A DNA stretch of 47,020 nucleotides from an uncultured Candidatus Saccharimonadales bacterium (lineage in GTDB: Bacteria > Patescibacteriota > Saccharimonadia > UBA4664 > SCTI01): contig CAYRGI010000001.1 in assembly GCA_964423965.1 (NCBI GenBank), positions 15,872-62,891 of the forward strand. Direction: 5' to 3'. The position numbers were made by a program, and so were the translations under genes. Numbering within the stretch: position 1 is the first letter of the stretch; every line of letters starts with the position of its first letter. Positions 5,159-45,842 of this stretch are shown here, in pieces. The notes under the pieces were generated by a model. The model was not told where the DNA came from, did not search any database, and saw nothing but the letters and a program-made list of their open reading frames with translations.

Positions 5159-5548
5159 ATGAGTAAAGGACTAAAAATAGGATTAATTTCGCTTGCATTA
5201 ATAGGGTCAATTATCTTGACAGGTGCAATGCTGGCATACCTTAGCACACAGCCAAATAGCTCTCCGGTTTCATTAGTAACGGGAGCAAACAAGACTTCAA
5301 GCTCAGCCAATGTAATTACGCTTGATCAGCTGGCTCAAAAAAATGGGTTAAATGGAAGCGATTGTTACGTTGCCATTGATACTAAAGTGTACTTGGTGAA
5401 AGGGTTTGCATCTTGGGAGATGGGTAGACATACTCCCGCCGATAGCAGTGTTACTTGTGGCAAGGACTTAACGCAGGCACTACAAGAGTCACCTCATGGA
5501 GCAAAAGTGTTGAGAAAATTGCCTGTTGTTGGAACGCTCCAGAATTAA
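5159..5548 (+). CDS. Membrane-anchored cytochrome b5-like heme/steroid-binding domain protein
   Basis: An N-terminal TM helix is followed by CYVAIDTKVYLVKGFASWEMGRHTPADSSVTCGKDLTQALQESPHG. This fits the bacterial cyt-b5-like pattern (VYDV..W..G.H...G.D.T......H). Confidence 0.5.
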   Translation: MSKGLKIGLISLALIGSIILTGAMLAYLSTQPNSSPVSLVTGANKTSSSANVITLDQLAQKNGLNGSDCYVAIDTKVYLVKGFASWEMGRHTPADSSVTCGKDLTQALQESPHGAKVLRKLPVVGTLQN

Positions 5549-7197: not shown

Positions 7198-7204
7198 ACC
7201 TTGA

Positions 7205-7210
7205 ACTTTA
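7205..7210 (-). promoter_or_regulatory. -10 element (TAAAGT, preceded by TGc) 7 nt upstream of the proposed pilB ATG
   Basis: The minus strand reads CTTATGC TAAAGT TCAAGGT ATG. Confidence 0.4.
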
Positions 7211-7286
7211 GCATAAGAGGAAAACTCCTTCCACCTAAAATTATCGCACTCATGCTTGAATTTTTGGTACAATGGGTTGGTAGTAT

Positions 7287-8702: not shown

Positions 8703-8782
8703 GCTTACGTTGCATTAGCCAAACCTTTTTGGTAGAGTTTGGGCACTTCAGTGGTGGAGAGAACCTTCAAGAAAGGAGACTC

Positions 8783-9391
8783 ATGCGGCGCAGGAAAAGT
8801 CGCTACACTGCAGCAAAACGCGGCAGGGATACAGCTCTTTCGGCAGAGGTAATCAGGCTGAGGGCGCGCCTTCAAGACCTGGAGAAGCGCCTTGCGGATG
8901 CAGAATCGCTTCCCGAAATAGCTGATAGACAAAGCTTCGAGGAGGCCCGCCAACGTCTAGATAACGATCCAGCGATTCAGCTCATCATGTTTGATGCCAA
9001 CAACTTCGGTATGGTCAACAAGATTGCCGGACATGATCTGGGTAATCAAGGGATCGATGAGATGGCGTGTGCAATTCGCGGCGCCGTCGATAACAGCCCC
9101 CATGCTTCAGCTCGTCAAATCTGGAGAATTGGGGGTGACGAGTTTGTTGTTGCCGTGCATGGGACCTACGGTGATGCTCACGAACTTGCACTAGATGCGA
9201 TCGAGAGATTCGGGCATAGGACCCTTGTTCGTGGTCCAGGGGATGTTGTTGTGGTAAGCCTGGAACACGGGATTGGCGATACGTTTTGTGAGGCAGATCG
9301 TGAGCTGCGTGGGTTCAAGGAGGCAAGAAAAGCCTCCGATATGGATCAACACTACCTCCAGTTCAGCAAGCCCTTTGTTGAACACGACTAG
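8783..9391 (+). CDS. Stand-alone GGDEF-domain protein (diguanylate cyclase-like) with a short coiled-coil N-terminus
   Basis: The protein has RIGGDEFVV, an upstream MFDANNFGMVNKIAGHDLGNQGI (metal/substrate region) and a C-terminal EADRELRGFK. No RxxD I-site lies 5 aa before GGDEF. The ATG at 8783 has GAAAGGAG 5 nt upstream. The ORF track starts earlier, at 8729. Confidence 0.75.
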   Translation: MRRRKSRYTAAKRGRDTALSAEVIRLRARLQDLEKRLADAESLPEIADRQSFEEARQRLDNDPAIQLIMFDANNFGMVNKIAGHDLGNQGIDEMACAIRGAVDNSPHASARQIWRIGGDEFVVAVHGTYGDAHELALDAIERFGHRTLVRGPGDVVVVSLEHGIGDTFCEADRELRGFKEARKASDMDQHYLQFSKPFVEHD

Positions 9392-26763: not shown

Positions 26764-28248
26764 TTGCAGGCTGACGCTCACGAAAAAAATACAATTCCAT
26801 CTGTAAATCCAGTTTATCGACAGGATGTTTTTGGTGAGCCCGTTTCGCGTATAAGGCAAGCAGCCTTCATCATTGGTGGTTTTCTTCTCGTTGCACTAAG
26901 TACCGCTCAGGTACTCATTGGATCAATCTATGCAGGCAAAGCATACCCTGGCGTTAAAGTGGCAGCGCAAGATATAGGTGGCATGACAAGAGAGCAGGCC
27001 AAGGAGCTTCTACAGCAAAAAATTAATGGCTACAAGGTTACGATCAAAGTTGATACCAAGACTTATACCGCAACTCCAGAAGAAGCTGGTATTAGTTATG
27101 ACCTAAACTCAACTCTGGACGATGCGTTTGTTCAGGGTAAAAAGCAGTGGTTTGCGCCAGTAGGCCTATATCAGACGATAAACTCTGTAGGCATAAACTA
27201 TTCCTACAAAGTTGATAATGACAAAAAGAAAGCTTTTGTCGACAAGATCGTAACAGAAACCGGGAAGGCTCCTGTTGACGCAACGGTCGTTATTGAAAAC
27301 GGTGAACCTAAGGTACAGCCTGATCAAAATGGGATCGGGCTTAGTTCTTCGCAGGTGGAAAATGCTTTGTTTGAGCGAGTTTCTACAGTTGACCCTGATC
27401 CGGTCGGTTTATCTCAAAGCTCTCAGCCGGCCAGGATAAAAGCTAAGGATGTGGAGCCGGCAATCAAGGAGACAAAGCAGCTACTTTCAACTCCTGTAAC
27501 GATTACATATCAAGGCAAGGTCTTTCAGCCGACGCCTTCTGATATGAGCAACTGGTACGCATTCGAAAAGACTCAACCAGAAGAGCCCGCTGGCGTTAAG
27601 CCAGTCGTTAACTCTGATGGGATCAAGAACTATTTGCAGAAGGTCGCTATCCAGATAAACGTTAATCCGATCAACAAGAAGGTAAAGATTGAGAATGGAG
27701 TTTCTCAAGTTGAAAGAGAGGGTGCGGAAGGCCTCGCATTAGATCAAGACACTCTTTCAGCTCAAATTGCCGAAGCAGTTGGTCAGAAGAAGTCATTCAC
27801 CGGTGAGGCTCCCACAGTAAAGCTAGGCTTTAAAACTGAGACAAACAGAGTTACAACGCTCGCCTACGGAAAGTACATCGAGATCAACCTATCACGGCAG
27901 TATATGTGGGTTTATCAAGATCAGAAAGTAATATTTGAGTCGCCGATAACCAGTGGGGCAGCAGGTGCCGGTTTTCCCACAGTTCAAGGACTGTTCTCGG
28001 TTCTTGCCAAGCAGACGAACCGTAACCTTAACGGGTACGCCATCGGTTACAACTACAATGTGTTCGTAAAGTACTGGATGCCATTCTTTGGGAACTATGG
28101 ACTACATGATGCCAGCTGGCGCTCAAGCTTTGGTGGATCAGATTACTATTACGGTGGATCCCATGGTTGCGTAAATATGCCGCTAAACGCCGCCGCATTC
28201 CTTTATGGGTGGGCCGATGTTGGCACTCCAGTTTGGGTCCATTCTTAA
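26764..28248 (+). CDS. Membrane-anchored L,D-transpeptidase (YkuD domain)
   Basis: An N-terminal TM helix is present. The C-terminal GLHDASWRSSFGG...GGSHGCVNMP matches the YkuD catalytic His/Cys motif. The start is a TTG; a TATAAT lies at 26734-26739. Confidence 0.8.
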   Translation: MQADAHEKNTIPSVNPVYRQDVFGEPVSRIRQAAFIIGGFLLVALSTAQVLIGSIYAGKAYPGVKVAAQDIGGMTREQAKELLQQKINGYKVTIKVDTKTYTATPEEAGISYDLNSTLDDAFVQGKKQWFAPVGLYQTINSVGINYSYKVDNDKKKAFVDKIVTETGKAPVDATVVIENGEPKVQPDQNGIGLSSSQVENALFERVSTVDPDPVGLSQSSQPARIKAKDVEPAIKETKQLLSTPVTITYQGKVFQPTPSDMSNWYAFEKTQPEEPAGVKPVVNSDGIKNYLQKVAIQINVNPINKKVKIENGVSQVEREGAEGLALDQDTLSAQIAEAVGQKKSFTGEAPTVKLGFKTETNRVTTLAYGKYIEINLSRQYMWVYQDQKVIFESPITSGAAGAGFPTVQGLFSVLAKQTNRNLNGYAIGYNYNVFVKYWMPFFGNYGLHDASWRSSFGGSDYYYGGSHGCVNMPLNAAAFLYGWADVGTPVWVHS

Positions 28249-28772: not shown

Positions 28773-31700
28773 GTGAGTGGAATTGCAGGGTTAGTCGCAA
28801 TATTTGTTGTTGTCGCTCTAATACTTGGCGTCTTTTCATTTTTCGCTTACCGTCGAGTTTTGAGGAGGGCAAAGGGGATAGAACGTGGTCTAAAGATGGT
28901 CCCGCTATTAATCCATCTGCCGCCACCTTCAGATGAATCCGAGCAGCAAACTATGCGCGATGTTCGTGATGTCATGCGAGAGAAAGCATCCCAAGCTCAA
29001 ACACTTTATGACCTGATCGCTGGTACTGCTCAACCCGGGCTTAAGAGTACGTTTTATGGTCAGCGTCATATTGCCTTCGAGGTTATTGCATCAAATGGCT
29101 TGGTGCATTTTTTCACTGCTGTGCCGGTGGCTTTGGTTAGTACTATTGAGCAAGCCATACAAACTGCATATCCAGGAGCACGTATAGAAGAGGTTGAGGA
29201 CCACAACATCTTTAATCCACAAGGGAAGCTGTCCGGCACCGTTGGTGGCGAGCTTGTGCTGAAGCAAGAATACTCATACCCGATCGAGACTCTTGACCAA
29301 ATGGAGAGAGATCCAATTGAGGGCCTTCTTAATGCGTTGATTAAGTTACAACAAGGTGATGGCGCTGCAGTTCAAATTATGCTCAGGCCGGCAAAACCCA
29401 AATGGTCAAATCGTGGTAAATTCTTGGTTGCTCGAAAACGCCGCCAGCGTCAAGGCACGCTCGATATTAATCCTGCCGACATTGCTAAAGCGGCATATAA
29501 ATCACCTGATGAGTGGCATCAGGAGTCCGTTCAGTATCAGCCGAGCAAGCTTGAAGAAACCATGCTTCAAGCGATGGAAGAGAAGATGCGCCATCCAGGG
29601 TTTGAGGTTCTTATTCGCGTAATAGCAAGCTCAACCACATATGACAAGGCGGAGATGATTTTAAGGAATCTAATCAATAGCTTTGCTCTGTATGAGGCAC
29701 CTGGTTCCAACGGCTTCCGGTTCCTTGAGTCTCGGGACATACAGGGCCTAGTTACTGCATTTATCTTCAGATTCTTCCCACCAGAAGTTACAAGCAATAT
29801 TCTTGCAACCAATGAGCTTGCGACGCTTTTTCATCTGCCGAACGACCAATTTACAGCCAGCACAGCAGTCGAGAGGCAGCTATCTAAACAGGTGGATGGC
29901 CCGGTTAATCTGCCTTCAACAGGGCTACTACTTGGGTACAACATGTATCGAGGCGTTAAGAAAGAGATTCGTCTTAGCGAGGAAGATCGTCGTCGACACA
30001 TGTACATCATCGGTCAAACTGGTACAGGTAAGTCGACAATTCTCGAAAACCTTGTCGTCCAAGACATGCTCGCTGGCCGAGGGCTAGCATTTATTGATCC
30101 CCATGGTGACGCTGCCGAGAAATTACTCAAGATGGTCCCCAAAGAAAGGGCAGAGGATGTAGTTTACTTCAATCCGGCAGATATGGAGCATCCGCTTGGC
30201 ATCAACCTGTTTGAGTTTGATACGCCCGAGCAAAAAGACTTCATTATTCAGGAGTCAATAAACATGCTCTATAAGCTTTACGACCCCGATAAGACTGGAA
30301 TAATAGGACCGCGATTTGAGCACTGGTTCAGAAGTGCTGCATTAACCCTGATGGCAGATCCTCAAGGGTCGTCTTTTATTGAAATTCCAAAAGTGTTTAC
30401 AGATACAACTTACTTAAAAAATAAATTTAAATATCTCAAAGATCCAACCGTAATTGATTTCTGGACCAAGGAAATGGGGCAGACAAGTGATTACCACAAG
30501 AGTGAAATGTTAGGGTGGTTCGTGAGTAAGTTCGGCGCATTCCAATCAAACGATATGATGCGCAATATTATCGGTCAGACCGAGTCGGCATTTAATATTC
30601 GCGACATTATGGATAAGAAGAAGATTTTGATCATTAACCTTAGCAAGGGAATGACTGGAGAGTTGAACTCGAAGTTGCTTGGAATGATCTTTGTTATCAA
30701 GATTCAAGCAGCTGCCATGAGCCGGTCCAATGTACCCGAGAGTGAGAGGGCAGATTTTAGTCTGATAGTTGATGAGTTCCAAAACTTTTCGACAGATTCA
30801 TTCGCTAGCATATTAAGTGAGGCCAGAAAGTACCGACTTAACTTAGTCGTTGCTAACCAGTTTATAGGTCAGTTGAGCGAAGAGATCAGGGAAGCAGTAT
30901 TCGGTAACATCGGAACAATGATGAGTTACCGTTGTGGTCCTGAGGACGCGGAATTCTTGGTCAAACAGTTCCAGCCGATGTTTACTGAGCGCGATCTTAT
31001 CAATATCCCTAACTTTAACGCAGTTATGAAGCTGCTTATTGGGGGACTACCTTCGCTTCCATTTAGTATCGCTGCGATGCCCCCACTGGGTCAGATGAAC
31101 GACGAGATGGGTCTTGCCGTAAAGCAGTTGAGCGCCGCCAAGTTTGGTGTTCAGCGATCCCAGGTCGAAGCCGATATATTTGCCCGACTTCAAAACCAAC
31201 CTCGTCCTAACTTAATGCCAGCCCAATCTCCGCAGCCGGCTCCAGCTCCTACTCCAGTTGCCCAGCCATCAGCTCAAACTCAGCCGTTAGCAGTACAAAC
31301 ACAGGTGCAACCTCAGCCACAGCCTCAGTCTCAAACCCCAACGGTTCAAACACTCCCGCCCAAGCCAATTGAGCCACCACAACCCGCTGTTGCAGCTCAA
31401 CCACAATATGTAGAATCTCCAAGTCAGCCACCAGCCCAACAGCCTCCCGTCTTACCGCAAATGCCTGGAGCTGTTCCGGCCACACCGTCTACCACCCCAC
31501 AGGTTCAGCAATCGGTGGATACTGTTACTGCGCAGCCGATTCAATCGCCGCCGGCTCAGTCGGTTCAGCCTGCACCAGTTGAATCAAAACCTGCGGCTAA
31601 ATCAGATCTAACCCTGACCAGTCTCCAAAAACCGGTGGCCGCTTCATCAAAACCAGTAAGCCCGCCCGCCTCGTCTAAATCAGATACAAACCAAATCGCC

Positions 31701-32855
31701 GACATTGTGGGCCCACCTGATATAAAACCGGCTACTACGACAAAACCGGTAGCGCTAATAGAGGCTCACGAGGAAGATGGTTATACTGATACTTCTTCAG
31801 TGGAGAATGCACCTACTGCGCCTCAATCTGTTTCGCCGCCAATGCAAGTTGCCCCAATAAATACACCAAGCTCTCCGCCAAAGTCAGATCCGACTCCAGC
31901 TCAAGCTCCAGCTTCAAAACAAATACCAACCCCTTCAGCTACCAGTTCGACTGATAGCGAAGAAGCGAAGCTCAATAAAGAGCTCCAAAAGGACGTTGAG
32001 GAGTCGATGAAGGCGGTTGCTCAGACCAAATCTTTCACGCCTCCAGAAAATCCTATTCCTCCGGCACCGCCCAAGTCTGCTCGAGCAACGTCGGATCCAC
32101 TTGAAGATATCACCGACAAATTAAATCAAGAATTAGAGCAAAAACTTGAGTCCGCATCGCATCCACTAATAAAACCCAAGGAATCGATATCTGTGCAGGC
32201 TGTGAAACCAAATCCTGCCCCTGCAACAGCACCAGCTCCATCGACATCGCCAGCTTCTGTTCCAGCTCCTTCTACAAGCGTCCCACCAAAGGTGGATCCC
32301 ACTCAAGCAACGGTATCCGTAAAAGCTCCAGACGTACCAGCTAAATCTGCGCCTACAGCTCCAAATACGCCTCAAACGGTAGTTCCTGCACAACCAGTTG
32401 CTCAGCCGCCATCTGGTCCTGCGGCAGGTAAGACGATGATTGCTACACATAGGAGTCCAAGGATTCCTGATACGAATCTGGCACCCCAGCCCGCAGCTCA
32501 GGAGTCAACGCTTGCTGAGCCAGAACCACCTACCATTGCTGTGCCAGCTCCTGTAGAGCCTAAGCCTTCATATACAGAGAGCGCTGCACCAAAGAAAGTT
32601 GTCATTGCCCCAGCGCCATCAAGCCAGCCCGTGCCGATTCCTAAAGATCCAAATCCCTTGCCGCCACCGCCAGCCCCTGGAACATCTTTCGCTCCAGCTT
32701 CACCTATAAAAATGGTGAATCAACAACCTCTGCCACAACCTGAACCGTCCACATCCGAGAAGGTGGATAATGCTTCTGCTCAGAAAGAGCAAGCACCTGA
32801 TCTCAAGCCAGGCGAAATTCGCATAGATAAAGACGGTAACGTAATTACTGGATAA
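28773..32855 (+). CDS. Membrane-anchored TraG/VirD4/HerA-like P-loop NTPase with a very long Pro/Gln/Ala/Ser-rich C-terminal tail
   Basis: N-terminal TM helix (GLVAIFVVVALILGVFSFFAY), Walker A GQTGTGKST followed by FIDPHGD, Walker B LIVDEFQNF, then ARKYRLNLVVANQ. The tail from about aa 806 is low complexity. The start codon is GTG. Confidence 0.6.
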   Translation: MSGIAGLVAIFVVVALILGVFSFFAYRRVLRRAKGIERGLKMVPLLIHLPPPSDESEQQTMRDVRDVMREKASQAQTLYDLIAGTAQPGLKSTFYGQRHIAFEVIASNGLVHFFTAVPVALVSTIEQAIQTAYPGARIEEVEDHNIFNPQGKLSGTVGGELVLKQEYSYPIETLDQMERDPIEGLLNALIKLQQGDGAAVQIMLRPAKPKWSNRGKFLVARKRRQRQGTLDINPADIAKAAYKSPDEWHQESVQYQPSKLEETMLQAMEEKMRHPGFEVLIRVIASSTTYDKAEMILRNLINSFALYEAPGSNGFRFLESRDIQGLVTAFIFRFFPPEVTSNILATNELATLFHLPNDQFTASTAVERQLSKQVDGPVNLPSTGLLLGYNMYRGVKKEIRLSEEDRRRHMYIIGQTGTGKSTILENLVVQDMLAGRGLAFIDPHGDAAEKLLKMVPKERAEDVVYFNPADMEHPLGINLFEFDTPEQKDFIIQESINMLYKLYDPDKTGIIGPRFEHWFRSAALTLMADPQGSSFIEIPKVFTDTTYLKNKFKYLKDPTVIDFWTKEMGQTSDYHKSEMLGWFVSKFGAFQSNDMMRNIIGQTESAFNIRDIMDKKKILIINLSKGMTGELNSKLLGMIFVIKIQAAAMSRSNVPESERADFSLIVDEFQNFSTDSFASILSEARKYRLNLVVANQFIGQLSEEIREAVFGNIGTMMSYRCGPEDAEFLVKQFQPMFTERDLINIPNFNAVMKLLIGGLPSLPFSIAAMPPLGQMNDEMGLAVKQLSAAKFGVQRSQVEADIFARLQNQPRPNLMPAQSPQPAPAPTPVAQPSAQTQPLAVQTQVQPQPQPQSQTPTVQTLPPKPIEPPQPAVAAQPQYVESPSQPPAQQPPVLPQMPGAVPATPSTTPQVQQSVDTVTAQPIQSPPAQSVQPAPVESKPAAKSDLTLTSLQKPVAASSKPVSPPASSKSDTNQIADIVGPPDIKPATTTKPVALIEAHEEDGYTDTSSVENAPTAPQSVSPPMQVAPINTPSSPPKSDPTPAQAPASKQIPTPSATSSTDSEEAKLNKELQKDVEESMKAVAQTKSFTPPENPIPPAPPKSARATSDPLEDITDKLNQELEQKLESASHPLIKPKESISVQAVKPNPAPATAPAPSTSPASVPAPSTSVPPKVDPTQATVSVKAPDVPAKSAPTAPNTPQTVVPAQPVAQPPSGPAAGKTMIATHRSPRIPDTNLAPQPAAQESTLAEPEPPTIAVPAPVEPKPSYTESAAPKKVVIAPAPSSQPVPIPKDPNPLPPPPAPGTSFAPASPIKMVNQQPLPQPEPSTSEKVDNASAQKEQAPDLKPGEIRIDKDGNVITG
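31190..32855 (+). repeat. Low-complexity coding region of about 555 codons (Pro/Gln/Ala/Ser/Thr-rich)
   Basis: The region has runs such as QPQPQPQSQTP, PAPATAPAPSTSPASVPAPSTSVPP and PLPPPPAPG. It generates spurious antisense ORFs (31249-31485, 32166-32450). Confidence 0.8.
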
Positions 32856-33410
32856 CTAAAATCTGCCGCGAATCCGGCGGACGGATTTCAGAATTCCCTC
32901 AATGATTAGGCCGAGTACGCCGCCGATCACAAGTGCAAAGAGAATTTCTGAGCCACTTAGCAAGAACCCATTGGCTCGAGCAAAGAAGTACATAGCGCCG
33001 CCGATCAACACTGCAGTTGTTGTTGCCCCAAGAGTTACAGATGGGCGAAATACAGTTTTGCCTAGTGCTTCACTTGTTGAGTCTACAACTGGTGAGTGAA
33101 TAAACTTACTAAATTGGCGTGTAGCCGGTTTCATTCGGTGTTGTAGGCTACGCATAGTGTTCTTGTAGTTTATTGAAGGCGTAATGAGCCTATGATGAGC
33201 ATGCCCGCCCTCGTTCTTGGTAGTCGTCTCATTCTTGGGTTGTACGGCCTCTGCCTGCTTAAGCATCTCCCGAGCTTTTTCGATGCTTTTCTCCTTGTTT
33301 TCCGGCCTTTCTCCATGGTTCTCGATCGACTTAAGTCTCTCTGCAGCCGCTCGCTCAATCTCGTTGTTGCTAGATCGTCGGTGCTCTACATTGCTAAGCT
33401 TTTCGCTCAT
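32856..33410 (-). CDS. Hypothetical membrane protein (charged N-terminus, two C-terminal TM helices)
   Basis: 184-aa ORF. Its start overlaps the upstream LPXTG gene's stop codon by 4 nt, which suggests an operon. Confidence 0.6.
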   Translation of the reverse strand: MSEKLSNVEHRRSSNNEIERAAAERLKSIENHGERPENKEKSIEKAREMLKQAEAVQPKNETTTKNEGGHAHHRLITPSINYKNTMRSLQHRMKPATRQFSKFIHSPVVDSTSEALGKTVFRPSVTLGATTTAVLIGGAMYFFARANGFLLSGSEILFALVIGGVLGLIIEGILKSVRRIRGRF

Positions 33411-34738
33411 CGTGGGCCTCCTTGATCATGTCTTAAGATAGATACCTCATATATAAGCTGGCGGTTGCGGAAGAATAAGAATCCAATAATTGCAGTAATG
33501 ATCATAATAATAAAAGTACTGCTTCCAGAGCCCGTTTGAGGTAACGCGGCGCTAGCGACTTCAACCTGCTTAGCGACCGTTGGTGCGGTGAGCTTTGTAC
33601 TGACACTATCTTTCTCATAAACATTGTCTATCTGTAGATCGTATGATCGAGGGTCGGATAGTGCAGCTGGCGTAGCAGGCAAAGGGCTTTTTATTCTTGC
33701 AGCGAAGTGCACCACTAAAGAGGCTCCAGGCGCGATATCAGTGGGCGCCCATGTAATAACCCCATCATTCAGTACGCCGTTTTCCGTATCGACGATATCG
33801 GCATACTCCAGGATGTCTCGAACGTTATCTCTTATAACGAATGATTTCTCGCTAGCAGTACCACTGTTTGTGACAGAAACGGTGTAGGTTACGGTTTCTC
33901 CGGCCTGTGCAGTTGCGCCATTCGCGTCCACAGTTGATCCATCAAGTCGAGTTAAGATGCCCGTCTTTAGGGTCGAAATATTTGGACTAAGATTCTCTGT
34001 TGGAGGGGGTATGACGGGTGTTATCGGCGTAGGGGTAACAGGTTGAGCAGGGGTGGGAGTTGGGACGGGCTGCGGGGCAGGGGTTGGAGGCTTTGGAGTC
34101 ACCTTAGGTGGCGTACTTGGCTTATCAGGCTTTGGAGGCGGAGCAGGGGTAGTATCGGTGATGGCGATGTTGCCGCAGTTGATCATTATGGCAAAGTATT
34201 TACCATCAATTGCGCGTCGGCCCTCAATAACTTTATATGTTATGTTATCTCCCCAGGAGTAGAGTGGACGCAAGTAGTATGTTGTCCCATTGATGACAAC
34301 TTTTGTGTCCCAATTCTTACCAGGCTTGTTATTAGGGTGGGGGTTTCTACCCAAAGACTTGATACTGTGGTTACTCGAGTTCATCGTGCCATGTTTTGTA
34401 TTTTCGATATCGTTACGATTGATCCCGTAACGATTAAGTATGGCCTTGATGTCACCATTGTTGTCGTAGTAGTGGAGCATGGTGGCTTGCGGATGGTTGG
34501 TTCCACCGATACCACCTCTAATGATGTCATTCGTGGAACCAGCAGCATTTGCCGGATCTGGTGGAGCGATTACGGTCATAACCTGCAGGCCAGCCACGGC
34601 TACCGCCATTACGATCGAGAGTTGCCTGGTTAGCTGCTCACCCTTAAGACGCCTATAGTAGTAGGCGAGTTGAGTAGTAGCCGAGGGGCTCAAACTGAGG
34701 TTAGAGACAATACTTCTAAACATAAAGGGTACACACAA
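33407..34738 (-). CDS. LPXTG-anchored cell-surface protein with a Pro-rich stalk and a DUF11-like repeat domain
   Basis: The C-terminal LPQTG plus hydrophobic stretch plus RNR is a canonical sortase signal. GETVTYTVSVTNSGTAS...FVIRDNV...GASLVVHFAARIK resembles the DUF11 conserved repeat. The stalk is PPPKPDKPSTPPKVTPKPPTPAPQPVPTPTP. The start is a TTG at 34738, or alternatively an ATG at 34723. Confidence 0.75.
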   Translation of the reverse strand: MCVPFMFRSIVSNLSLSPSATTQLAYYYRRLKGEQLTRQLSIVMAVAVAGLQVMTVIAPPDPANAAGSTNDIIRGGIGGTNHPQATMLHYYDNNGDIKAILNRYGINRNDIENTKHGTMNSSNHSIKSLGRNPHPNNKPGKNWDTKVVINGTTYYLRPLYSWGDNITYKVIEGRRAIDGKYFAIMINCGNIAITDTTPAPPPKPDKPSTPPKVTPKPPTPAPQPVPTPTPAQPVTPTPITPVIPPPTENLSPNISTLKTGILTRLDGSTVDANGATAQAGETVTYTVSVTNSGTASEKSFVIRDNVRDILEYADIVDTENGVLNDGVITWAPTDIAPGASLVVHFAARIKSPLPATPAALSDPRSYDLQIDNVYEKDSVSTKLTAPTVAKQVEVASAALPQTGSGSSTFIIMIITAIIGFLFFRNRQLIYEVSILRHDQGGPR

Positions 34739-37061: not shown

Positions 37062-39671
37062 ATGAATCCAGAAGAACAGACACCAGAAGAAAAGATTACG
37101 CCCGAAGAAGCCGCTGAAGCTGTAGAAAACGCTCAAAAGCATATCGCAAGCGGGAATATCAAGTTCCAGTCTCTTGAGACCGAGATGGAGACTAGCTACC
37201 TTAACTACGCTATGTCGGTTATTGTTTCCCGCGCCCTTCCAGATGTTAGAGATGGATTAAAGCCAGTACATCGCCGAATTCTGTATGTCATGAACAGCAT
37301 GGGCCTCAGACATACCTCAAAGTATCGCAAGAGTGCTGCAGTTGTAGGTGACGTTATGGGAACCTTCCACCCTCATGGTGACTCGGCAATTTATGACGCC
37401 ATGGTTCGCCTGGCTCAAGACTTCTCGATGCGCTATCCATTAGTCGATGGACAGGGTAACTTTGGGTCTATGGATGGCGACCCTGCGGCCGCTATGCGCT
37501 ATACCGAAGCACGTATGACTCGTATTGCAGGCGAGATGCTCTTTGACATCGAGAAGAACACGGTTGATTTTCGTCCCAACTACGACGGCTCAACAAAAGA
37601 GCCAACGGTTCTTCCTGCAAAGATTCCAAACCTGCTCCTAAATGGGCAAATGGGTATTGCTGTTGGAATGGCAACCAATATTCCACCTCATAATCTTGGG
37701 GAGCTAGTAGATGGTGTAATTCACCTAATCGACAACCCAGAGGCTCCGCTTGATGATCTAATGCAATATATTAAAGGACCCGATTTCCCAACTGGCGGGG
37801 TTATCTACGGCAATAATTCGATAAAACAAGCGTACGGAACCGGCAAAGGCTCAATTGTTATCCGTGCCGTCGCCGAGATCGAAGAGGACAAGAAGGGCAA
37901 TCAACAGATTGTCATCACCGAGATTCCTTTCCAGGTGAATAAATCGACTCTTGTAACTAAGATTGCTGAGCTCGTAAAAGAAAAGCGCATTGTTGGAATT
38001 AGCGACCTACGCGATGAGTCAAACCGTCACGGAGTGCGCGTTGTCGTCGAGCTCAAGAAGGATAGCTACCCGAAGAAGATCCTCAACCAGCTATACAAGA
38101 TGACCCCGATGCAGAGTGCCTTCCACGTTAATATGCTGGCATTAGTTGATGGCATCCAGCCTCGCGTGATGACCCTCGAGATGATGCTTCGAGAATTTAC
38201 AAAGCATCGCCAAGTAGTAGTTCGCCGCCGCACCGAGTTTGAGCTCGGTAAGGCTAAGGAGCGAGCTCATATTCTGGAAGGGCTCAAGATTGCTCTCGAT
38301 CACATTGATGAGGTAATCAAGACAATTCGAGCCAGCAAGACATCGGAAGAAGCCGAGACTAACTTAATCAAGCAATTTAAGCTGACTACCGTTCAAGCCA
38401 AGGCAATTCTTGCAATGCAGCTCAGACGTTTGACTGGCCTTGAGCGACAGGTCATTGAGGATGAACTCGCAGCCCTACTTAAACTTATCGCTGAGCTCGA
38501 GAAAATTCTGGCGGATGAAAAAGAAATCCTGCGCATTATTAAAGAAGAGCTCACGGAAGTCAAAGATAAATATGGTGATGATCGCCGAACCAAGATTGTA
38601 GCCCAAGAGCTTGGCAAGTTTAGCGAAGAGGAGCTCGTTCCAAACGAGCAGGTAATTGTCACGCTAACGCAAGGCAACTATATCAAGAGGATAGCGGCGA
38701 ATACATATAAGAGTCAGGGCCGCGGTGGTAAGGGAATTATGGGCATGACTACTAAAGAAGAGGACGTAGTAGAGCATTTAGTTCTGACCCAAAACCATGA
38801 TTTTATACTGTTCTTTACCAATAAAGGACGCGTGTTTAGGCAAAAAGTTTACGAAATTCCTGCCGCTAGCCGAACCGCTAAGGGACAAGCGATTGTGAAC
38901 CTACTCCAGTTGGGTCCCGATGAGGTAGTAACTTCGCTCAATACATTTAGCAAAGATACAGCTGGCAAATACCTGTTTATGACCACAAAGAATGGAACCG
39001 TAAAAAAGACCGCACTTACAGATTATGCAAATGTTCGAACTAATGGTTTGATTTCTATCAAACTTGATAGCGGAGATGAACTCAAGTGGGTTAAGCAGAC
39101 TAGCGGAAGCGATGAGATCGTGATCTCAACTATGCTGGCGCAAGCAATTAGATTTAAAGAAACAGATGTGCGTCCGATGGGGCGTGCTACCAGAGGGGTT
39201 AGAGGAGTTCGACTGCGCCCAGGTGATACGGTAGTTGGAATGGATGTTGTTTCGCCAGAAACCCAGCTGCTGGTAGTCATGGAGAACGGCTATGGCAAGA
39301 GAACCAAGGTTGATCAGTTCGCAACTCATGCTCGAGGCGGAGTAGGCATTAAGGCAGGTGTTGTTACTGATAAGACTGGTAAAACCGTTGACGTACGTGC
39401 TATCGAAAGTGTGGATGACGATCTGGTTATTGTGTCTACCAATGGCCAGGTTATACGGTTGCCACTCAAAGAAATTTCATTAATAGGACGAGCTACTCAA
39501 GGCGTCAGAATAATGAGAATGAAAGAAGGGGATAAAGTTGCTTCGGTGGCATTAGTCGGAGAGGCAAAGCTAGAAGAGGAAATTGCAGCTGAGTCATCCG
39601 AAAGTGAAGCATCATCCAAGGAAGAAGAGAAGCCCCAAAAGAAGGTTTCGAAGAAACCCACAAGCAAATAA
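37062..39671 (+). CDS. gyrA: DNA gyrase subunit A
   Basis: The sequence has [36 protein letters not shown] and the active-site AAMRYTE. The GyrA-box region and beta-pinwheel repeats are present. The tail is acidic and Lys-rich. Confidence 0.95.
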
Positions 39672-39860: not shown

Positions 39861-40658
39861 TTGGGCAAGAAAGCTAGGCAAATACTTAGCGCATTAGCTT
39901 TTACCGCAACTGTTGGTTCAGGAGCGGCGTTAGCCGATGCTTCTGTTGTCACAAACTCTACTGCAAGCACAACTGTAAGTAATGAAGTTGAAAGTAGTAT
40001 TGTATCTAACTCATCTACCATTTCGAGTTCTTCAAATGAACAAAAATCAATTGATTCATCTCCTCTACAGGGTGAGTCAGCTACACATGAGGATTTTCAA
40101 ATAAGCCAAAAACAATTTGATGAAGAGCAATCAACTACGCAAGAAAATAAAAGCGAAGCCTCATCTGCATCTACACAAAATGAGGGGGTAGTTAATTTGA
40201 GTAAAGCTTCGGTATCATCGAGTTCAACGGCTCAAAGCAAAGGTAAATTGAGCCCACTTTGGTATTCCGATGCAAATCCTGAATCAAGATTAGATGCCAA
40301 GTCATTTGTATCGCAAACACCAGCAACTAGTTCCACAAACTCAAATCCACCACATAAATCAGATCCATTTAGTGGAATTATTGATGAGCTAGGTTTCCTT
40401 TCGGAGATAACTTTACCACTTGCTTTAGGAGGAGGTTTCGGAGGCTTTGCGTCTGACAAGAACTATCCTTCGTTAGTACTCATATTCATTCCCTTGATTT
40501 TGGCGCTTATTGCTTCTCGGATGTATATATTCTCTAGATATACAGACCGTTTGCGATACTCAGGGTTCATACACGCTCCGCGTAGTGATACGTTGTGGGC
40601 CTTCGATTTTGCCACTCCACCAAGATGGGTTTTATCAACTGCTCTAAGCAGAGCTTGA
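39861..40658 (+). CDS. Secreted Ser-rich protein with a C-terminal TM helix and basic cytoplasmic tail (first gene of the repeat-protein operon)
   Basis: TTG start with AGGAGGG upstream. Signal peptide ...GSGAALA/DAS. The middle is long and Ser/Thr/Asn/Glu-rich. TM helix LVLIFIPLILALIAS. Confidence 0.6.
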   Translation: MGKKARQILSALAFTATVGSGAALADASVVTNSTASTTVSNEVESSIVSNSSTISSSSNEQKSIDSSPLQGESATHEDFQISQKQFDEEQSTTQENKSEASSASTQNEGVVNLSKASVSSSSTAQSKGKLSPLWYSDANPESRLDAKSFVSQTPATSSTNSNPPHKSDPFSGIIDELGFLSEITLPLALGGGFGGFASDKNYPSLVLIFIPLILALIASRMYIFSRYTDRLRYSGFIHAPRSDTLWAFDFATPPRWVLSTALSRA

Positions 40659-40721
40659 AGGTAAAGCCTATTTTTGGTGGGTGCGAATGAATAACGCTAT
40701 TAGAAAGGAGGTGAAAGATGC

Positions 40722-41396
40722 ATGGGAGTTAAAGAGATAGCAAAAGCAGCTGTTATTGCAGGTTCTGTGACACTGGTTGGAGCGGGGGCAGCATTCGCAG
40801 ATGAAGCTTCAATAAATGAGACTGGTCCTGATTCAAGCAACACGATCAGTGTCAGCTACAGTAACAACATGAGTGTTAGTAATCAGAATTCAGTTACGGT
40901 AACAAATAACAATCAACAATCAGCATCGTCCGGGAGTGCAACTGTTAGCAACAACACAACCGCAGGAGATGCAACTAGCGGTAACGCTAGTAACTCAAAC
41001 AGCACATCAACAAGTATAGAGATAGGTAATCAAACTCAGGGCGGAAACGGTAACGGGCCCGGCGGCGGCCAAGGGAGTGGCGGCGGCGCTGGCTCCGGTA
41101 GCGGTGGCCAAGGTGCTGGAGGATCTGGTGGTATGGGCGGTGGAAGCTCCTCAGCAGCTGGTGGTTTAGGCGGTGGCCTTGCCATGGGCGGCGTAGGTGG
41201 CGGAATATCGACATTGCCAGCAGTAGGATGTGAAGTGGTTTGTGATGTCAGTGGTTTGAGAGCAGGATATAACGATGAAATTGCAAAAGCAACCGAACAG
41301 GCGAGAGGCATATCGGCCAGTCTGCTAGCATTAGCAGCGATATTAAGTCTTGTAGGAGCGGGAGGAAGCGCATTCTTCGCACGTAAGCAAGCATAG
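40722..41396 (+). CDS. Secreted TGPDS-module protein with a Gly-rich spacer and C-terminal membrane anchor
   Basis: AGGAGG ribosome-binding site. Signal peptide ...GAGAAFA/DEAS. One repeat module (aa 34-101), a 55-aa Gly-rich tract (aa 107-161), a CEVVC Cys pair, then C-terminal LLALAAILSLVGAGGSAFFARKQA. Confidence 0.7.
   Translation: MGVKEIAKAAVIAGSVTLVGAGAAFADEASINETGPDSSNTISVSYSNNMSVSNQNSVTVTNNNQQSASSGSATVSNNTTAGDATSGNASNSNSTSTSIEIGNQTQGGNGNGPGGGQGSGGGAGSGSGGQGAGGSGGMGGGSSSAAGGLGGGLAMGGVGGGISTLPAVGCEVVCDVSGLRAGYNDEIAKATEQARGISASLLALAAILSLVGAGGSAFFARKQA
41040..41204 (+). repeat. Gly-rich low-complexity coding tract (GGN codon runs)
   Basis: The tract reads GGNGNGPGGGQGSGGGAGSGSGGQGAGGSGGMGGGSSSAAGGLGGGLAMGGVGGG. 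It produces the spurious antisense ORF at 41036-41476. Confidence 0.85.
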
Positions 41397-41405
41397 GGGG
41401 TAAGA

Positions 41406-41864
41406 ATGGTAGTTCCAATAAAGAAGACAGCTATTGCAGTTGGAGTAGTAATGGTATCAGGTGGTGCGCTTATCACCCTTGCACACGACCAGATGCCAAC
41501 TACAAGTTCTAGTGGTAATCAAAGGGGTCAGCAAAACTCTGACGTCCAGGGTGTTGTGGAGAATCCACCCGTGGATGTGAAGATAAATGGCCAGCAGGTA
41601 CCGGTTCAGCCAGGGACAACTAGCTTTGACACCGGTTCTGGAAAAGCCACGGTCAGCGCTTCTAATGATCGAGTTGAGGTAAATCACAAGTCAACATCGG
41701 TTACCCCAGGGAACGTTGATGTAAGAGTCAAGACCGAGAGTCACGGGAACTCTAATACTAGTGCCCGGTATCGGTCTACTACCAGGAGCTCAACAGAGAG
41801 TTCATCGTCTTCGAGTGTAGAAATTTCTACTAAGGGGGACAGCAAAGTAAATATTGAAGAATAA
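41406..41864 (+). CDS. Small secreted or signal-anchored Ser/Thr/Asn-rich protein
   Basis: It has an N-terminal hydrophobic segment, AIAVGVVMVSGGALITLA. It lies between two repeat-module genes, with a 9-nt gap after the upstream stop codon. Confidence 0.55.
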   Translation: MVVPIKKTAIAVGVVMVSGGALITLAHDQMPTTSSSGNQRGQQNSDVQGVVENPPVDVKINGQQVPVQPGTTSFDTGSGKATVSASNDRVEVNHKSTSVTPGNVDVRVKTESHGNSNTSARYRSTTRSSTESSSSSSVEISTKGDSKVNIEE

Positions 41865-41882
41865 ATAAGTGAGGAATATAGG

Positions 41883-42464
41883 ATGGAAAAAGTACTAAAG
41901 TACGCGTCAATCGGATTGGCATCGTTGGGAATAGGTTTAGGAGTGGCAGCGGCAGATAGTGCCGACATTGGCACCACTGGACCAGATTCAGACAATAAGG
42001 TCGAGATCAGTAGGCATAATGATCTCGATATCGATAACAACAATGATGTTGATGTAAATAACAACAACGACCAAGAGGCTCGTACCGGTGACGCTAAAGT
42101 TTACGACAATACAACCGGTGGTGATGCCGAAAGCGGTAATGCCGAAAACTCGAATGACACTTCAACCGAGGTTAGTGTGACAAACTCGGGGGCGGGATCA
42201 TGGTCCGCGATGTTTGGAGGCAATGGAAGCTCCAGCGCATCGATTGATACTACTGGCCCAGATAGCTACAACAGCATCAAGTTCCACTATGATAACGATG
42301 TAAATGTTGATAACGATAATGACGTTAATGTTAACAACAATAACAGTCAGACTGCCAAGAGTGGTAATGCAACCGTTCAGCACAACACATCAGGTGGGGG
42401 TGCTTCAAGTGGTAGCGCAACAAACACAAATAGCACATCAACTTCGGTCCATATTAGCAACTAA
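41883..42464 (+). CDS. Secreted two-module TGPDS repeat protein, highly acidic (Asp/Asn-rich), no anchor
   Basis: Signal peptide ...GLGVAAA/DSAD. The modules are at aa 32-100 and aa 124-193 (nt 41976-42182 and 42252-42461). The protein ends directly after the second module. Confidence 0.7.
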   Translation: MEKVLKYASIGLASLGIGLGVAAADSADIGTTGPDSDNKVEISRHNDLDIDNNNDVDVNNNNDQEARTGDAKVYDNTTGGDAESGNAENSNDTSTEVSVTNSGAGSWSAMFGGNGSSSASIDTTGPDSYNSIKFHYDNDVNVDNDNDVNVNNNNSQTAKSGNATVQHNTSGGGASSGSATNTNSTSTSVHISN

Positions 42465-42477
42465 CTAATAGACTGAA

Positions 42478-42501
42478 GCGGGAGAGCATGTCTCTCCCCG
42501 C
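42478..42501 (+). terminator. Hairpin between the two-module gene and the 757-aa gene (terminator or attenuator)
   Basis: GGAGAG pairs with CTCTCC (6 bp, extended by flanking G-C pairs). AATTATAGTTTTT follows. Confidence 0.45.
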
Positions 42502-42543
42502 AATTATAGTTTTTGGAGAATTAATCAGATTGAGAGGTACGGG

Positions 42544-44817
42544 ATGTTAAAGGTAAGAAAGAGAAAATTCTGGGAGAAAAGTGTTTACTCAGTGTTGGCG
42601 GGTGCTCTAATCCTCGGTCAATCTTCGGGCGCAGTACTAGCTGCAGAGGGGGAGTTGGCAACCGTTCAGCAGGTTGAGCAGCCCACAGAGCCGCAGCCCG
42701 AAGCCGCTCCTCAAACAACAACAGAACCAGTAACCGAAGTTCCTGTAACTGACCCTCAACCGGTTCAACCCGTTGAACCATCTAATTCTCAAGGGCCGAC
42801 ATCAACACCGGGTCCAACAGGGCCTACTGGGCCAACGTCCTCTCCAGGACCTACTTCTCCAACAGGGAAAATACCAAACTATGCCTTTGATGACTCGGCA
42901 GGAAGATGGGTCCCTACGAACACAGCAACTTTTTCATGGAACCCGAAGTCGGGATTATATGAGTCACCTCTATATCGTTACGATCCAGTAGTTGGTTGGT
43001 ATCATGTGATTCCTGGCGCTCAAGCCCAGGCGCTTACTCTGCCTACAAGCGCTCAGGGTGCTCCGGTTGTAGCATCATCAGCTCAGATAAACCCTGCCGC
43101 AGTTCTTGCTTCCATGCTGGGGCTTGCTGGATCAAATTCAAACACCGGTCCAGATTCGCAAAATAGTATAGGAGTAGCAGCTTCAACCGAAGCAATGTTG
43201 AAGAACCTTACAAACGCTCTGATCAACAACATCAGTAACACAGCAGCGATTAGCGGTGATGCAACCGTTGATGGCAACACCAATGCGGGTGACGCCATTA
43301 CAGGTGCAGCGCGAGTAGTTGAGAACCTCTTCAACCTACTAAATGCTGCTTGGTCTTGGGCAAATGGAGGATTATCGTACTTTGCTCAAAATCTTTTTGG
43401 GGATCACTTTGGAGATATCACGATTGACCCACAAAGAGTTGAGGGAGCAGGCGGGCAGTTAGGAAGCTACAACCCGAATACTGGCGCATCTAATACTAAC
43501 ACTGGGCCAGATTCGCAGAATGAAGTAACGCTTGATGGTTCAAGCGATATTACGGTTATCAATCAACCTAACGGAGCAATCAACAATAACCTTAATTTAT
43601 TGGCTCAATCTGGTAACGCAAGCGTCACTAACAACACCAATGCAGGAAATGCTACTTCAGGTATGTCATCTGTTGAGGTGAATATTTTGAATCTTATTAA
43701 CTCTGCAATCAACGCTGGAGATTCGTTCTTCGGTCTTCTTAACATCTTCGGCGATTTTAATGGCGACGTTCTTTTCCCAGATGGTTTCTTGAACAGCGTT
43801 GTTGGCCCGCAGGGCGGGAGTGGTAACTTAAGCGCCGCAAATTCTTACACCGGACCCAATTCTAGCAATGCTATTCAGTTAAACGGTCAGAATAATACAA
43901 ATATAGCTAATAGCCCAAGTGCGTACTTCAATAATAATATCGAGTCAGTAACTCAAAGCGGTAATTCACTAGTAGATGGGAACACATCTGCCGGTTCGAG
44001 TTTGACAGGTAATGCAACTACGGAAAACAACTCATTTAATATATTCAATACCAGCTTAGCCGGCGATAATGCGGTATTAGTCTTGGTTAATGTTATGGGA
44101 CAATGGGTGGGCCATATCATGAATCTTCCATCGGCAAGCGGGTCAACGGGTGCGTTGCTAGCCGGAAATGCGACTTCAAGCAACTCAATGACTGGACCTG
44201 GTTCGGGAAACACTATAGATGGCAACTCAAACACCAATCTCAACATTACAGATAACCCAGTAGGAAGTATTTCTAACAACATTAATGCGGGTGCAATTAG
44301 TGGAAATGCGACCGTTAGCGGTAATACATCCGCCGGAAATGCGACTAGTGGTGATGCTAGTGTTTCTACAAATATTGCCAACATATTTGGCAGTCAATTC
44401 AACTTAAATAGATGGTTCGGAGTACTGGTCATAAACGTTTTTGGTAACTGGACAGGCAGCGTTGCTGATGATACCTCCGCGGGAGAAAGTGCATCTAATC
44501 TGTTGAATTCTCAGCAGCAGAGAACTGCAACGACAAAAGAAACAATTATTCAGACCAATAGTATGTATGATGGGCAAAGAAACAATAGTCAGTTCATAAG
44601 CAATACTGGTGGAAATAGTTCATTACAATCGGGCTCAAATGTTGAGAGTGGTACAACAACCAACCTAACACCCAATGCAGTGTTTGCTGCTGCAACAAAT
44701 AGAAGCCTGGATACTAGACAGGTAGCGGACTCGGCAGGGTTGCTAGCCGGTTTAGCCGCAGCCGCCTTGCTAATGTCGGGCGCCGCAATTCAAATTCGAC
44801 GAAAGTTGATGGTTTAG
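42544..44817 (+). CDS. Large secreted four-module TGP(D/N/G)S repeat protein with a Pro-rich N-terminal stalk and C-terminal membrane anchor
   Basis: It has a signal peptide, a Pro/Thr/Gln stalk (GPTSTPGPTGPTGPTSSPGPTSPTG), four modules of 114-119 aa beginning at aa 201, 320, 436 and 550, and a C-terminal GLLAGLAAAALLMSGAAIQIRRKLMV. Confidence 0.75.
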   Translation: MLKVRKRKFWEKSVYSVLAGALILGQSSGAVLAAEGELATVQQVEQPTEPQPEAAPQTTTEPVTEVPVTDPQPVQPVEPSNSQGPTSTPGPTGPTGPTSSPGPTSPTGKIPNYAFDDSAGRWVPTNTATFSWNPKSGLYESPLYRYDPVVGWYHVIPGAQAQALTLPTSAQGAPVVASSAQINPAAVLASMLGLAGSNSNTGPDSQNSIGVAASTEAMLKNLTNALINNISNTAAISGDATVDGNTNAGDAITGAARVVENLFNLLNAAWSWANGGLSYFAQNLFGDHFGDITIDPQRVEGAGGQLGSYNPNTGASNTNTGPDSQNEVTLDGSSDITVINQPNGAINNNLNLLAQSGNASVTNNTNAGNATSGMSSVEVNILNLINSAINAGDSFFGLLNIFGDFNGDVLFPDGFLNSVVGPQGGSGNLSAANSYTGPNSSNAIQLNGQNNTNIANSPSAYFNNNIESVTQSGNSLVDGNTSAGSSLTGNATTENNSFNIFNTSLAGDNAVLVLVNVMGQWVGHIMNLPSASGSTGALLAGNATSSNSMTGPGSGNTIDGNSNTNLNITDNPVGSISNNINAGAISGNATVSGNTSAGNATSGDASVSTNIANIFGSQFNLNRWFGVLVINVFGNWTGSVADDTSAGESASNLLNSQQQRTATTKETIIQTNSMYDGQRNNSQFISNTGGNSSLQSGSNVESGTTTNLTPNAVFAAATNRSLDTRQVADSAGLLAGLAAAALLMSGAAIQIRRKLMV
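43144..44463 (+). repeat. Four tandem divergent coding repeats (about 345 nt each) inside the 757-aa protein
   Basis: Each unit reads NTGP[DNG]S.N.I ... SGNA.V..NT.AG.A.SG ... [LI].N[LI].N ... N[IV]FG.[WF].G. The repeat is visible at protein level. The DNA copies are too diverged to be recent duplications. Confidence 0.8.
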
Positions 44818-44975: not shown

Positions 44976-45842
44976 ATGTACAATCCATATCTGGTTATCC
45001 CATTTGTCGTTTGGATTATCACCCAGTTCTTAAAATTTATTATCGCTGCTGCAGGCGGCAAGTTAGATTTTAGGTATCTTTATGCGTCAGGTGGTATGCC
45101 TAGTGTTCACTCCGCAGTCGTCATATCACTAGCTACAACTGCTTTTCTTGTAGATGGACCGCAGTCGCCGCTATTCGGCATAACGGCAATTTTGGCTGCG
45201 ATTGTTATGTATGACTCATTTGGGGTTCGGCGATCTTCTGGGGAGCAAGCTATGGCTATAAACCTAATTCTAGATAGCTTACAAGAGGACAAGATACCCT
45301 TGCATCAACCTCAATCCCGCTTAAGGGAGCTCCTTGGTCACAAACCGTTGGAGGTTACAGTTGGAGCAGCTCTAGGGTTTGTACTAGCATGTCTCTTCAA
45401 TGTCGATAAACTCGATAATTTTATTAGCAGCATTACCACACCTGTTAGCCAGCAAATGGCGATCGCTATGGGCGGCATCTCAATTATTTTGCTTGTGGGG
45501 GCAATTATTGTGCGAAGCTTATATATGAAGCAGTACAAAAAGGTGCCAGTCGTTGCTAGGGCAATAAAGCAGGCTTTTTGGTTGATGGTAGTTCTTGCGG
45601 GTGTATCTTTAATAGTCGCTTTCTTTGCGTACCAAAAGATTGCCGTTGTAAACTGGCTGCTTTGGCCAATTCTCATAATTTTATTTACACTCGCCATCTT
45701 TGGCTGGCTATTCAACTACTACAGAAAAATTATTCCAAACGTTATTGCTGAGAACATTGTTGAGGAAGACAAGGCCAAGTGGTTTGAGGGCCCAAACAAA
45801 AAGCGTCGGGCAGCTAAGGCGCGCTCCAGAAAAAGAAAATAG
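44976..45842 (+). CDS. Divergent PAP2 / DUF212 (YuiD-like) membrane protein with extra C-terminal TM helices and a basic tail
   Basis: YASGGMPSVHSAVVISLATTAF...IVMYDSFGVRRSSGEQA matches the acid phosphatase / vanadium haloperoxidase-related DUF212 signature as I recall it. The C-terminus is KKRRAAKARSRKRK. Confidence 0.6.
   Translation: MYNPYLVIPFVVWIITQFLKFIIAAAGGKLDFRYLYASGGMPSVHSAVVISLATTAFLVDGPQSPLFGITAILAAIVMYDSFGVRRSSGEQAMAINLILDSLQEDKIPLHQPQSRLRELLGHKPLEVTVGAALGFVLACLFNVDKLDNFISSITTPVSQQMAIAMGGISIILLVGAIIVRSLYMKQYKKVPVVARAIKQAFWLMVVLAGVSLIVAFFAYQKIAVVNWLLWPILIILFTLAIFGWLFNYYRKIIPNVIAENIVEEDKAKWFEGPNKKRRAAKARSRKRK

Follow-up and report, generated by a model that had tools for sequence, protein, structure and literature searches.

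The chaplins of Streptomyces comprise long members (ChpA-C), which are anchored by sortase, and short members (ChpD-H), which are free and thought to assemble on the anchored ones. The subunits of curli and Fap are parallel strand-turn-strand solenoids. Patescibacteria, or Candidate Phyla Radiation (CPR), account for a large share of bacterial diversity, and those brought into culture live attached to other microbes. Little is known of what their cell envelope is made of (PMC5220378). Here we analyze a stretch of 47,020 nucleotides (nt; hereafter the window) on contig CAYRGI010000001.1 of an uncultured Candidatus Saccharimonadales bacterium (assembly GCA_964423965.1), and within it a cluster of five genes, g1 to g5, of which g2, g4 and g5 share a repeated protein module.

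This module constitutes an undescribed, uncurated domain family of about 70 amino acids (aa) that lacks significant sequence or fold matches, and it occurs in three states: in a free protein (g4), tethered to the wall by a Gly-rich stalk (g2-type proteins), and, in extended form, tethered to the membrane (g5). The module system is probably a structural part of the Patescibacteria cell surface. The reading we favor, while holding it only tentatively, is that of a Patescibacteria-specific envelope system built on one module, in which a self-associating coat or fiber is tethered to wall and membrane and resembles the chaplins in logic only. The gene system is new, yet of a familiar general kind, with monoderm-type surface proteins, sortase involvement, and free and anchored paralogues. 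As a first-pass annotation made from the letters of the window had described, the cluster consists of five consecutive plus-strand genes between gyrA and a PAP2-like gene:

37062-39671: gyrA, flanking the cluster before g1
39861-40658, + strand: g1, 265 aa, open reading frame (ORF) with an AGGAGG Shine-Dalgarno site
40722-41396, + strand: g2, 224 aa, anchored one-module member
41406-41864, + strand: g3, 152 aa, without the module, first gene of the conserved triad g3-g4-g5
41883-42464, + strand: g4, 193 aa, free subunit with two short modules
42544-44817, + strand: g5, 757 aa, membrane-anchored member with four extended modules
44976-45842: DUF212 "divergent PAP2" gene (Pfam E=3e-39), flanking the cluster after g5

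Independent gene calls in two other assemblies with an identical g5 agree with those of the cluster, and the Shine-Dalgarno sites and the 9-nt gap between g2 and g3 are as previously described. The four intergenic gaps, from g1-g2 to g4-g5, measure 63, 9, 18 and 79 nt, and these short distances, together with the shared orientation, suggest that the five genes form an operon.

Seven modules, each initiated by TGP[DNG]S, begin at residue 34 of g2, residues 32 and 124 of g4, and residues 201, 320, 436 and 550 of g5, which bears out the earlier observation of a module present once, twice and four times in the 224-, 193- and 757-aa proteins. All seven align without a gap across 70 residues at 29-57% identity. 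Composition-corrected BLAST of module against module gives E-values down to 5e-10 (nominal database size 1e8), and, under the same correction, homologues from other genomes are matched at 1e-17 to 1e-50. Judged from these comparisons, the likeness of the modules is homology, not low-complexity coincidence.

The module had been recognized as no named family, and the searches agree. The five proteins gave no match to the module in Pfam or NCBIfam at E<=1, ten further, longer family members gave none in Pfam at E<=0.01, and neither g4 by itself nor either of the two family profiles matched the module to any PDB sequence. Foldseek searches with the g5 model returned nothing at E<=0.001 from PDB and BFVD, and we found no description of the family in the full-text literature on surface layers (S-layers), sortases and amyloids of Saccharibacteria and Patescibacteria. 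None of the family members has an informative Pfam domain, and wherever NCBI or nr gives a name it is "hypothetical protein"; the label "trimeric autotransporter adhesin" that JGI entry P0162 gives to a g5 homologue was judged spurious.

The family is large and widespread. A word-indexed search retrieved at least 353 homologues of g4, named Candidatus Saccharibacteria or Saccharimonadales, with the closest genome locus in an uncultured Saccharimonadales metagenome-assembled genome. These homologues are 190-202 aa long (72 aligned), and keep about 45-55% identity across many species; the family median pI is 4.2. At E<=1e-3, a profile search of 1.84 billion cluster representatives yielded 2,265 matches, 333 of them at E<=1e-30, and in each the profile aligned with one to about six stretches. 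Starting from a divergent member with six modules, a further 619 proteins were found, whose NCBI labels, where given, are Parcubacteria, Andersenbacteria and Woykebacteria. The remark on similar strings in hypothetical proteins of CPR genomes, made in the first-pass annotation, was therefore accurate.

By hydropathy, g1, g2 and g5 each have a C-terminal transmembrane segment, that of g3 is N-terminal, and g4 has none. The proteins are built as follows:

g1: signal peptide; S/T/Q-rich ectodomain; transmembrane segment, residues 200-226 (nt 40458-40538); cytoplasmic tail, residues 227-265 (nt 40539-40655)
g2: signal peptide; one short module (nt 40821-41030); Gly-rich spacer of about 60 aa (nt 41031-41216)
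g2, C-terminus: LPAVG, residues 165-169 (nt 41214-41228); conserved "DVSxLR" insert, motif and insert together covering residues 165-193 (nt 41214-41300); transmembrane segment (nt 41301-41381); basic tail ARKQA
g3: N-terminal transmembrane segment or signal-anchor (nt 41418-41489); S/T-rich region; block "V-x-I-N-G-Q-x-[VI]-x-V" (nt 41574-41630)
g4: signal peptide; two short modules (nt 41976-42185 and 42252-42461); no anchor
g5, N-terminal parts: signal peptide; Pro-rich segment, residues 40-100 (nt 42661-42843); aromatic β-hairpin domain, residues 110-160 (nt 42871-43023)
g5, extended modules: nt 43129-43431, 43486-43785, 43831-44127 and 44173-44469
g5, C-terminal parts: S/T/N/Q-rich stalk, residues ~645-725; transmembrane helix, residues 725-756 (nt 44716-44811)

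This layout revises the earlier description in two places. The C-terminal transmembrane segment of g1 and the conserved 39-aa tail behind it had been missed, and the Pro-rich part of g5, previously taken for its stalk, is N-terminal and distal to the anchor, the membrane-proximal stalk being the S/T/N/Q-rich region.

The division into free and anchored relatives holds family-wide. In an architecture census of 711 family proteins, the roughly 380 proteins with 2-6 short modules are essentially never anchored, an anchor is present in 28 of the 31 proteins with a single module (LPxT[GS] in 21), and most of those with 4-8 extended modules have a transmembrane segment at their end. Like chaplins, these are small secreted paralogues that share one module, are split into sortase-anchored and free members, and have a dedicated sortase, a likeness of logic and not of family. 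The differences are considerable. None of the five proteins matches the chaplin family (DUF320, PF03777) in Pfam; the chaplin domain is hydrophobic and about 40 aa long, whereas the present module is a hydrophilic, acidic β-meander of 70 aa; the anchored member here has fewer modules than the free one, the reverse of chaplins; and the large transmembrane-anchored g5 with its extended modules has no chaplin counterpart.

Anchoring of the one-module proteins is linked to sortase. Every one-module protein encoded beside a sortase gene has an LPxTG or LPxTS motif near its C-terminus (LAKTTG in one case), and behind it a transmembrane segment and a basic tail. Such g2-like proteins resemble the LPXTG surface proteins of monoderms in their signal peptide, low-complexity wall-spanning spacer, sorting motif, hydrophobic segment, basic tail and adjoining sortase gene, but the domain they display is undescribed, and g4 and g5 are not sortase substrates. 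The g2 of the window departs from the pattern as well, reading LPAVG (Thr to Val) where its sub-clade relatives read LPETG, LPDTG or LPEVG, with about 25-30 residues, including the conserved "DVSxLR", between this motif and the transmembrane segment. In addition, tblastn found no sortase gene in the window. From its sequence, LPAVG appears to be a degenerate, derived sortase-type sorting signal, and this g2 is probably held by its transmembrane segment. The C-terminal transmembrane anchor attributed to g2 in the first-pass annotation is thus present, whereas the anchoring region as a whole looks like a derived sorting signal.

Across a synteny sample of 79 species-level loci, g5 directly follows g4 in 75. 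A g3-like small, N-terminally anchored protein lies directly upstream of g4 in at least 46 of 75 loci, as detected with a weak hidden Markov model (HMM) of four sequences, and 23 more loci have some plus-strand ORF at this place; the conserved block of g3 comes from its alignment with counterparts in loci L001, L003 and L007. Genes like g2 are located elsewhere in most genomes and stand directly upstream of the triad in the sub-clade of the window. The gene g1, which has no Pfam or NCBIfam family, is an accessory limited to this sub-clade: g1-like ORFs precede a g2-like gene in L008, L009, L030, L035 and L067, and the motif of the cytoplasmic tail, RYSGFIHAPRSD...FATPP in the window and RRSGF-x-x-APRSD...FATPP in its family form, is visible in L008, L030, L035 and L067, L009 being a g1-like match. 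One genome retains the order gyrB-gyrA-g1..g5-DUF212 although its g5 shares only 53% identity with that of the window. Co-conservation and a fixed gene order, the check proposed with the first-pass annotation, are therefore borne out, the unit conserved across genomes being g3-g4-g5 and not all five genes.

The pair of free and anchored proteins extends beyond Saccharibacteria. In loci labeled Andersenbacteria and Woykebacteria and in a third locus, the gene for a free protein with four modules (about 370 aa) comes first and that for a protein of 750-1,020 aa with a C-terminal anchor comes next, and these large anchored proteins match the g5 HMM at E ~1e-65. The Woykebacteria-labeled locus also encodes a two-module LPVTG protein, and the third locus has a sortase gene nearby. 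In two non-Saccharibacteria loci, L087 and L089, one of them labeled Andersenbacteria, a conserved N-terminally anchored protein of 303-309 aa follows the g5-like gene (L087 10010-12614, L089 11284-12213), L087 adds a further 560-aa protein, and the small gene upstream (217-226 aa) is unrelated to g3. Accessory genes thus differ between lineages.

A sortase gene (PF04203) lies nearby in 24 of the 79 loci, and 20 hold a multi-transmembrane glycosyltransferase family 2 (GT2) gene of the Glycos_transf_2, Glyco_tranf_2_3 or Glyco_transf_21 families, with hydrophobic C-terminal segments. As a separate observation, a block of a synthase-like, multi-transmembrane GT2, a sortase and a one-module LPxTG protein recurs in L001 (10729-13057, - strand), in L007 (10237-12699, - strand) and in 20-24 of the loci L008-L086. 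It stands upstream or downstream of the triad in either orientation and is absent beside the cluster of the window. In one Saccharibacteria genome, four secreted or transmembrane proteins about 3 kb upstream of the triad (L003 36-4548), one with a weak WxLIP_PGBD match and another with a weak PKD_4 match, resemble a WxL-type surface cluster.

Two lines of evidence bear on the fold of the module. AlphaFold modeled g5 with a mean predicted local distance difference test score (pLDDT) of 68.5 and module cores at 87-96 (β2-arch-β4-β5); the model of g4 alone, from a 72-sequence alignment, reached a mean of 46.5, was unusable and was left out of the fold search. The extended module of g5 is predicted to run from β0 through the TGPDS turn, β1 (16 residues), a two-residue turn, β2 (13 residues), a short arch (SG-x-A-x-V / NT / AG-x-A / SG, written SG-x-A-x-V / NT / GG-x-A / SG-x-A for the module in general), β4 (11 residues) and a hydrophobic β5 (15 residues) to GD-x-x-GD. 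The modules of g4 and g2 stop after β4 and lack the hydrophobic covering strand β5 of the g5 modules. Mean-field direct coupling analysis (DCA) of 1,689 unique module instances (effective number, Meff, ~1,500) over a 76-column core revealed a ladder of nine pairs with i+j=103 (31-72, 33-70, 35-68, 37-66, 39-64, 41-62, 43-60, 44-59 and 46-57). Sums of 101-105 occur in 13 of the top 40 couplings, against about 2 estimated by chance; weaker couplings at i+j ~56-60 join β1 and β2, and the TGPDS loop couples with the NT tip (columns 9-52). The ladder columns map exactly onto the AlphaFold strands β2 and β4 in g4 and g5. Since the predicted strands and the independent antiparallel ladder agree, the module is best modeled as a long antiparallel β-meander, not as a β-solenoid, a curli-like cross-β structure or a calcium-binding β-roll. 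The stacked strand-turn repeats proposed earlier therefore survive as a repetitive all-β architecture but not in their solenoid geometry, the strands being antiparallel and i+j, not i-j, being constant along the ladder. When DCA was run on extended modules alone, gap and indel artefacts dominated (columns 1, 97 and 76-84), and β4-β5 pairing was not confirmed thereby.

Along each strand, every other position is conserved, and together these residues make up a single Asn/Val/Ile/Ala/Gln/Gly face. The opposite face of the sheet is unconserved across the family and is Asp-rich, acidic, in the g4 of the window, where the β1-β2 segment sets an Asn/Val/Ile/Leu face against an Asp-rich one. Because the family consensus shows no conservation at the intervening positions, strong Asp enrichment is unlikely family-wide. 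The calcium-binding β-roll, raised previously for this Asp-rich protein, found no backing: Pfam gave no RTX-type match (HemolysinCabind, GGxGxDxUx), and the acidic residues of g4 lie on one sheet face. Two further ideas were set aside. Domains cross-linked by ester or isopeptide bonds were rejected, since neither Lys nor His is invariant at any position of the module, and obligatory intramolecular pairing of two modules was judged unlikely, given that free proteins carry 2-6 modules, including odd counts.

How might such proteins work together? In the coat or fiber reading, g4, g2-type proteins and g5 would be exported by Sec, and g2-type proteins would in most lineages be bound to peptidoglycan by the dedicated sortase. 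In g5, β5 would pack on the conserved sheet face and yield four self-sufficient folded domains, whereas free g4 would satisfy its uncovered faces or edges by binding the modules of anchored proteins and other g4. The result would be a non-covalent coat or fiber, tethered to wall and membrane, with the small, N-terminally anchored g3 as a putative assembly or tethering accessory. We infer assembly by homotypic module-module association as the most economical mechanism; polymer formation and a role in envelope integrity or host contact would follow from it. The low pLDDT of g4 modeled alone is what one would expect if the subunit were not complete without partners. Like S-layer proteins, these proteins are acidic, secreted, largely Cys-free, lineage-conserved and possibly capable of self-assembly on the wall, but Pfam and NCBIfam scans found neither SLH nor CWB2 nor any further domain that anchors S-layers, and the free subunit has only 17 kDa. 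Outside the CPR groups that have SLH-domain proteins, S-layer composition is, to our knowledge, undefined.

Several points weigh against a self-associating coat or fiber. The low pLDDT of g4 may just mean a shallow 72-sequence alignment or a flexible protein. Oligomerization of the module proteins is something we infer, the cover of β5 over the conserved face is deduced from strand order and hydrophobic sequence in the model, and the role of g3 is presumed. The operon structure receives no backing from a promoter and terminator scan of the cluster, which stayed at chance level and was uninformative. The range of 2-6 modules in free proteins follows no simple pairing rule. Furthermore, a cryo-electron tomography study of the cultivated Saccharibacterium TM7x reported only two classes of filaments and attributed both to type IV pili (PMC11623550), an observation that bears on the matter only if TM7x encodes the system.

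Other explanations account for parts of the same evidence. The modules could bind a ligand, such as a glycan or protein of the host cell wall, with g2 and g5 displaying them and g4 acting as a soluble secreted binder, all without self-assembly. The invariant TGPDS, SG, NT, GG and SG elements cluster at one end of the module, and the coevolution of the TGPDS loop with the NT tip would suit a conserved functional cap or pocket. The distal end of g5 carries, in addition, the aromatic β-hairpin domain (Y-x-F/Y-D...G-x-W repeats; pLDDT ~95), which is conserved in the family, matches PDB entry 4r03_A weakly (E=0.002) and OCRE and DUF3836 below threshold, and could be a glycan- or wall-binding tip. 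Yet the conserved positions make up a whole sheet face besides the cap; g4 keeps its length and identity across many species, whereas host-binding adhesins usually vary quickly; the system is found across lineages with presumably different hosts; and simple adhesion leaves unexplained why a strictly anchorless paralogue should stand directly upstream of the anchored g5 in 75 of 79 loci. We consider this explanation unlikely. Somewhat less probable still is that the proteins organize or tether a polysaccharide made by the adjacent GT2 synthase, be it a capsule, a wall polymer or the glycosylation of S/T-rich proteins, so that the modules bind the polymer and not each other. The GT2 gene does lie beside the sortase and one-module LPxTG genes in 20 of 79 loci, in both orientations, and g1, g3 and the g5 stalk are S/T-rich and hence potential substrates of O-glycosylation. 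Nevertheless, the window and its sub-clade keep the system with neither a GT2 nor a sortase gene adjacent, 59 of the 79 loci have no GT2 gene within 6 kb on either side, and Pfam scans of the five proteins and ten relatives recognized no carbohydrate-binding domain.

The least probable alternative, which we regard as very unlikely, is the one closest to the fiber system first suggested for this locus, namely that g4 is a curli-like or Fap-like amyloid subunit undergoing nucleated cross-β stacking on an anchored g2 "nucleator". A free major subunit with a surface-bound paralogue sharing its repeat is indeed the logic of CsgA/CsgB and FapC, the alternating Asn/Gln/Gly/Ala/Ser-rich pattern is similar, g4 alone is not confidently foldable, and FapC and CsgA rank at the top of the PDB fold matches of the g5 model. 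These matches are non-significant, however (E=0.6-1.9, TM-score <0.1): CsgA (8c50) gave E=1.9 and TM-scores of 0.03-0.06, and FapC (9nqd), which has no sequence match either, gave E=0.63, probability 0.01 and TM-scores of 0.04-0.10, so that both, like a collagen-like match, were rejected as noise. Neither Curlin_rpt (PF07012) nor another amyloid family in Pfam is matched by the five proteins (E<=1), and Curlin_rpt is unmatched in ten relatives as well (E<=0.01), which speaks against curli-type membership. The intramodule antiparallel meander, with long hairpins and strands of 11-16 residues, differs from the parallel β-solenoids of curli and Fap, and the homologous g5 modules are predicted as ordinary folded domains. 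Mature g4 (17.3 kDa, no Cys) is strongly acidic and hydrophilic, with a pI of 4.05 and a grand average of hydropathy (GRAVY) of -1.07. The neighborhoods hold g1, g3, sortase and GT2 genes and no CsgE/F/G-like or FapF-like genes; as far as known, the organisms are monoderm-like, and an outer-membrane channel would not apply.

What is new here is a module without curated family or structural match, together with a conserved set of genes whose products are free, anchored to the wall or anchored to the membrane. The set spans Saccharibacteria and the loci labeled Andersenbacteria and Woykebacteria, and Parcubacteria have related proteins. If the reading as a coat or fiber is true, the assembly would give this lineage a structural element of its own where the cell meets its host and phages, and the module would be a new self-assembling β fold. 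A bolder version, which we think rather doubtful, is that g3-g4-g5 and the sortase-anchored one-module protein form the main self-assembling coat of the CPR, an ancient phylum-wide lattice or fiber with a new β-meander fold; it would give a molecular identity to part of the CPR cell envelope. As genetic tools exist for some Saccharibacteria (PMC10633639; PMC11623550), the coat or fiber hypothesis is directly testable, provided that cultivated strains encode the system.

Other genes of the window may also relate to the cell envelope. An envelope- or pilus-related group at 3460-9391 comprises a subtilase (3460-5034, - strand), a T2SSE/PilB-type ATPase (5545-7332, - strand), a LytR-CpsA-Psr ligase (7287-8702, + strand) and a short GGDEF-domain protein (8729-9391, + strand), and an L,D-transpeptidase with PG_binding_4 is encoded at 26764-28248. 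A 1,360-aa ORF with HerA/DUF87 and TrwB-type ATPase signatures (28773-32855, + strand) could belong to the monoderm-type type IV secretion system that a preprint reports for Patescibacteria (10.1101/2025.01.22.634366). Just upstream of gyrB, a 443-aa DUF11 repeat protein (33407-34738, - strand; E=7.5e-9) and a 184-aa ORF with no family match (32856-33410, - strand) look like another surface-protein pair.

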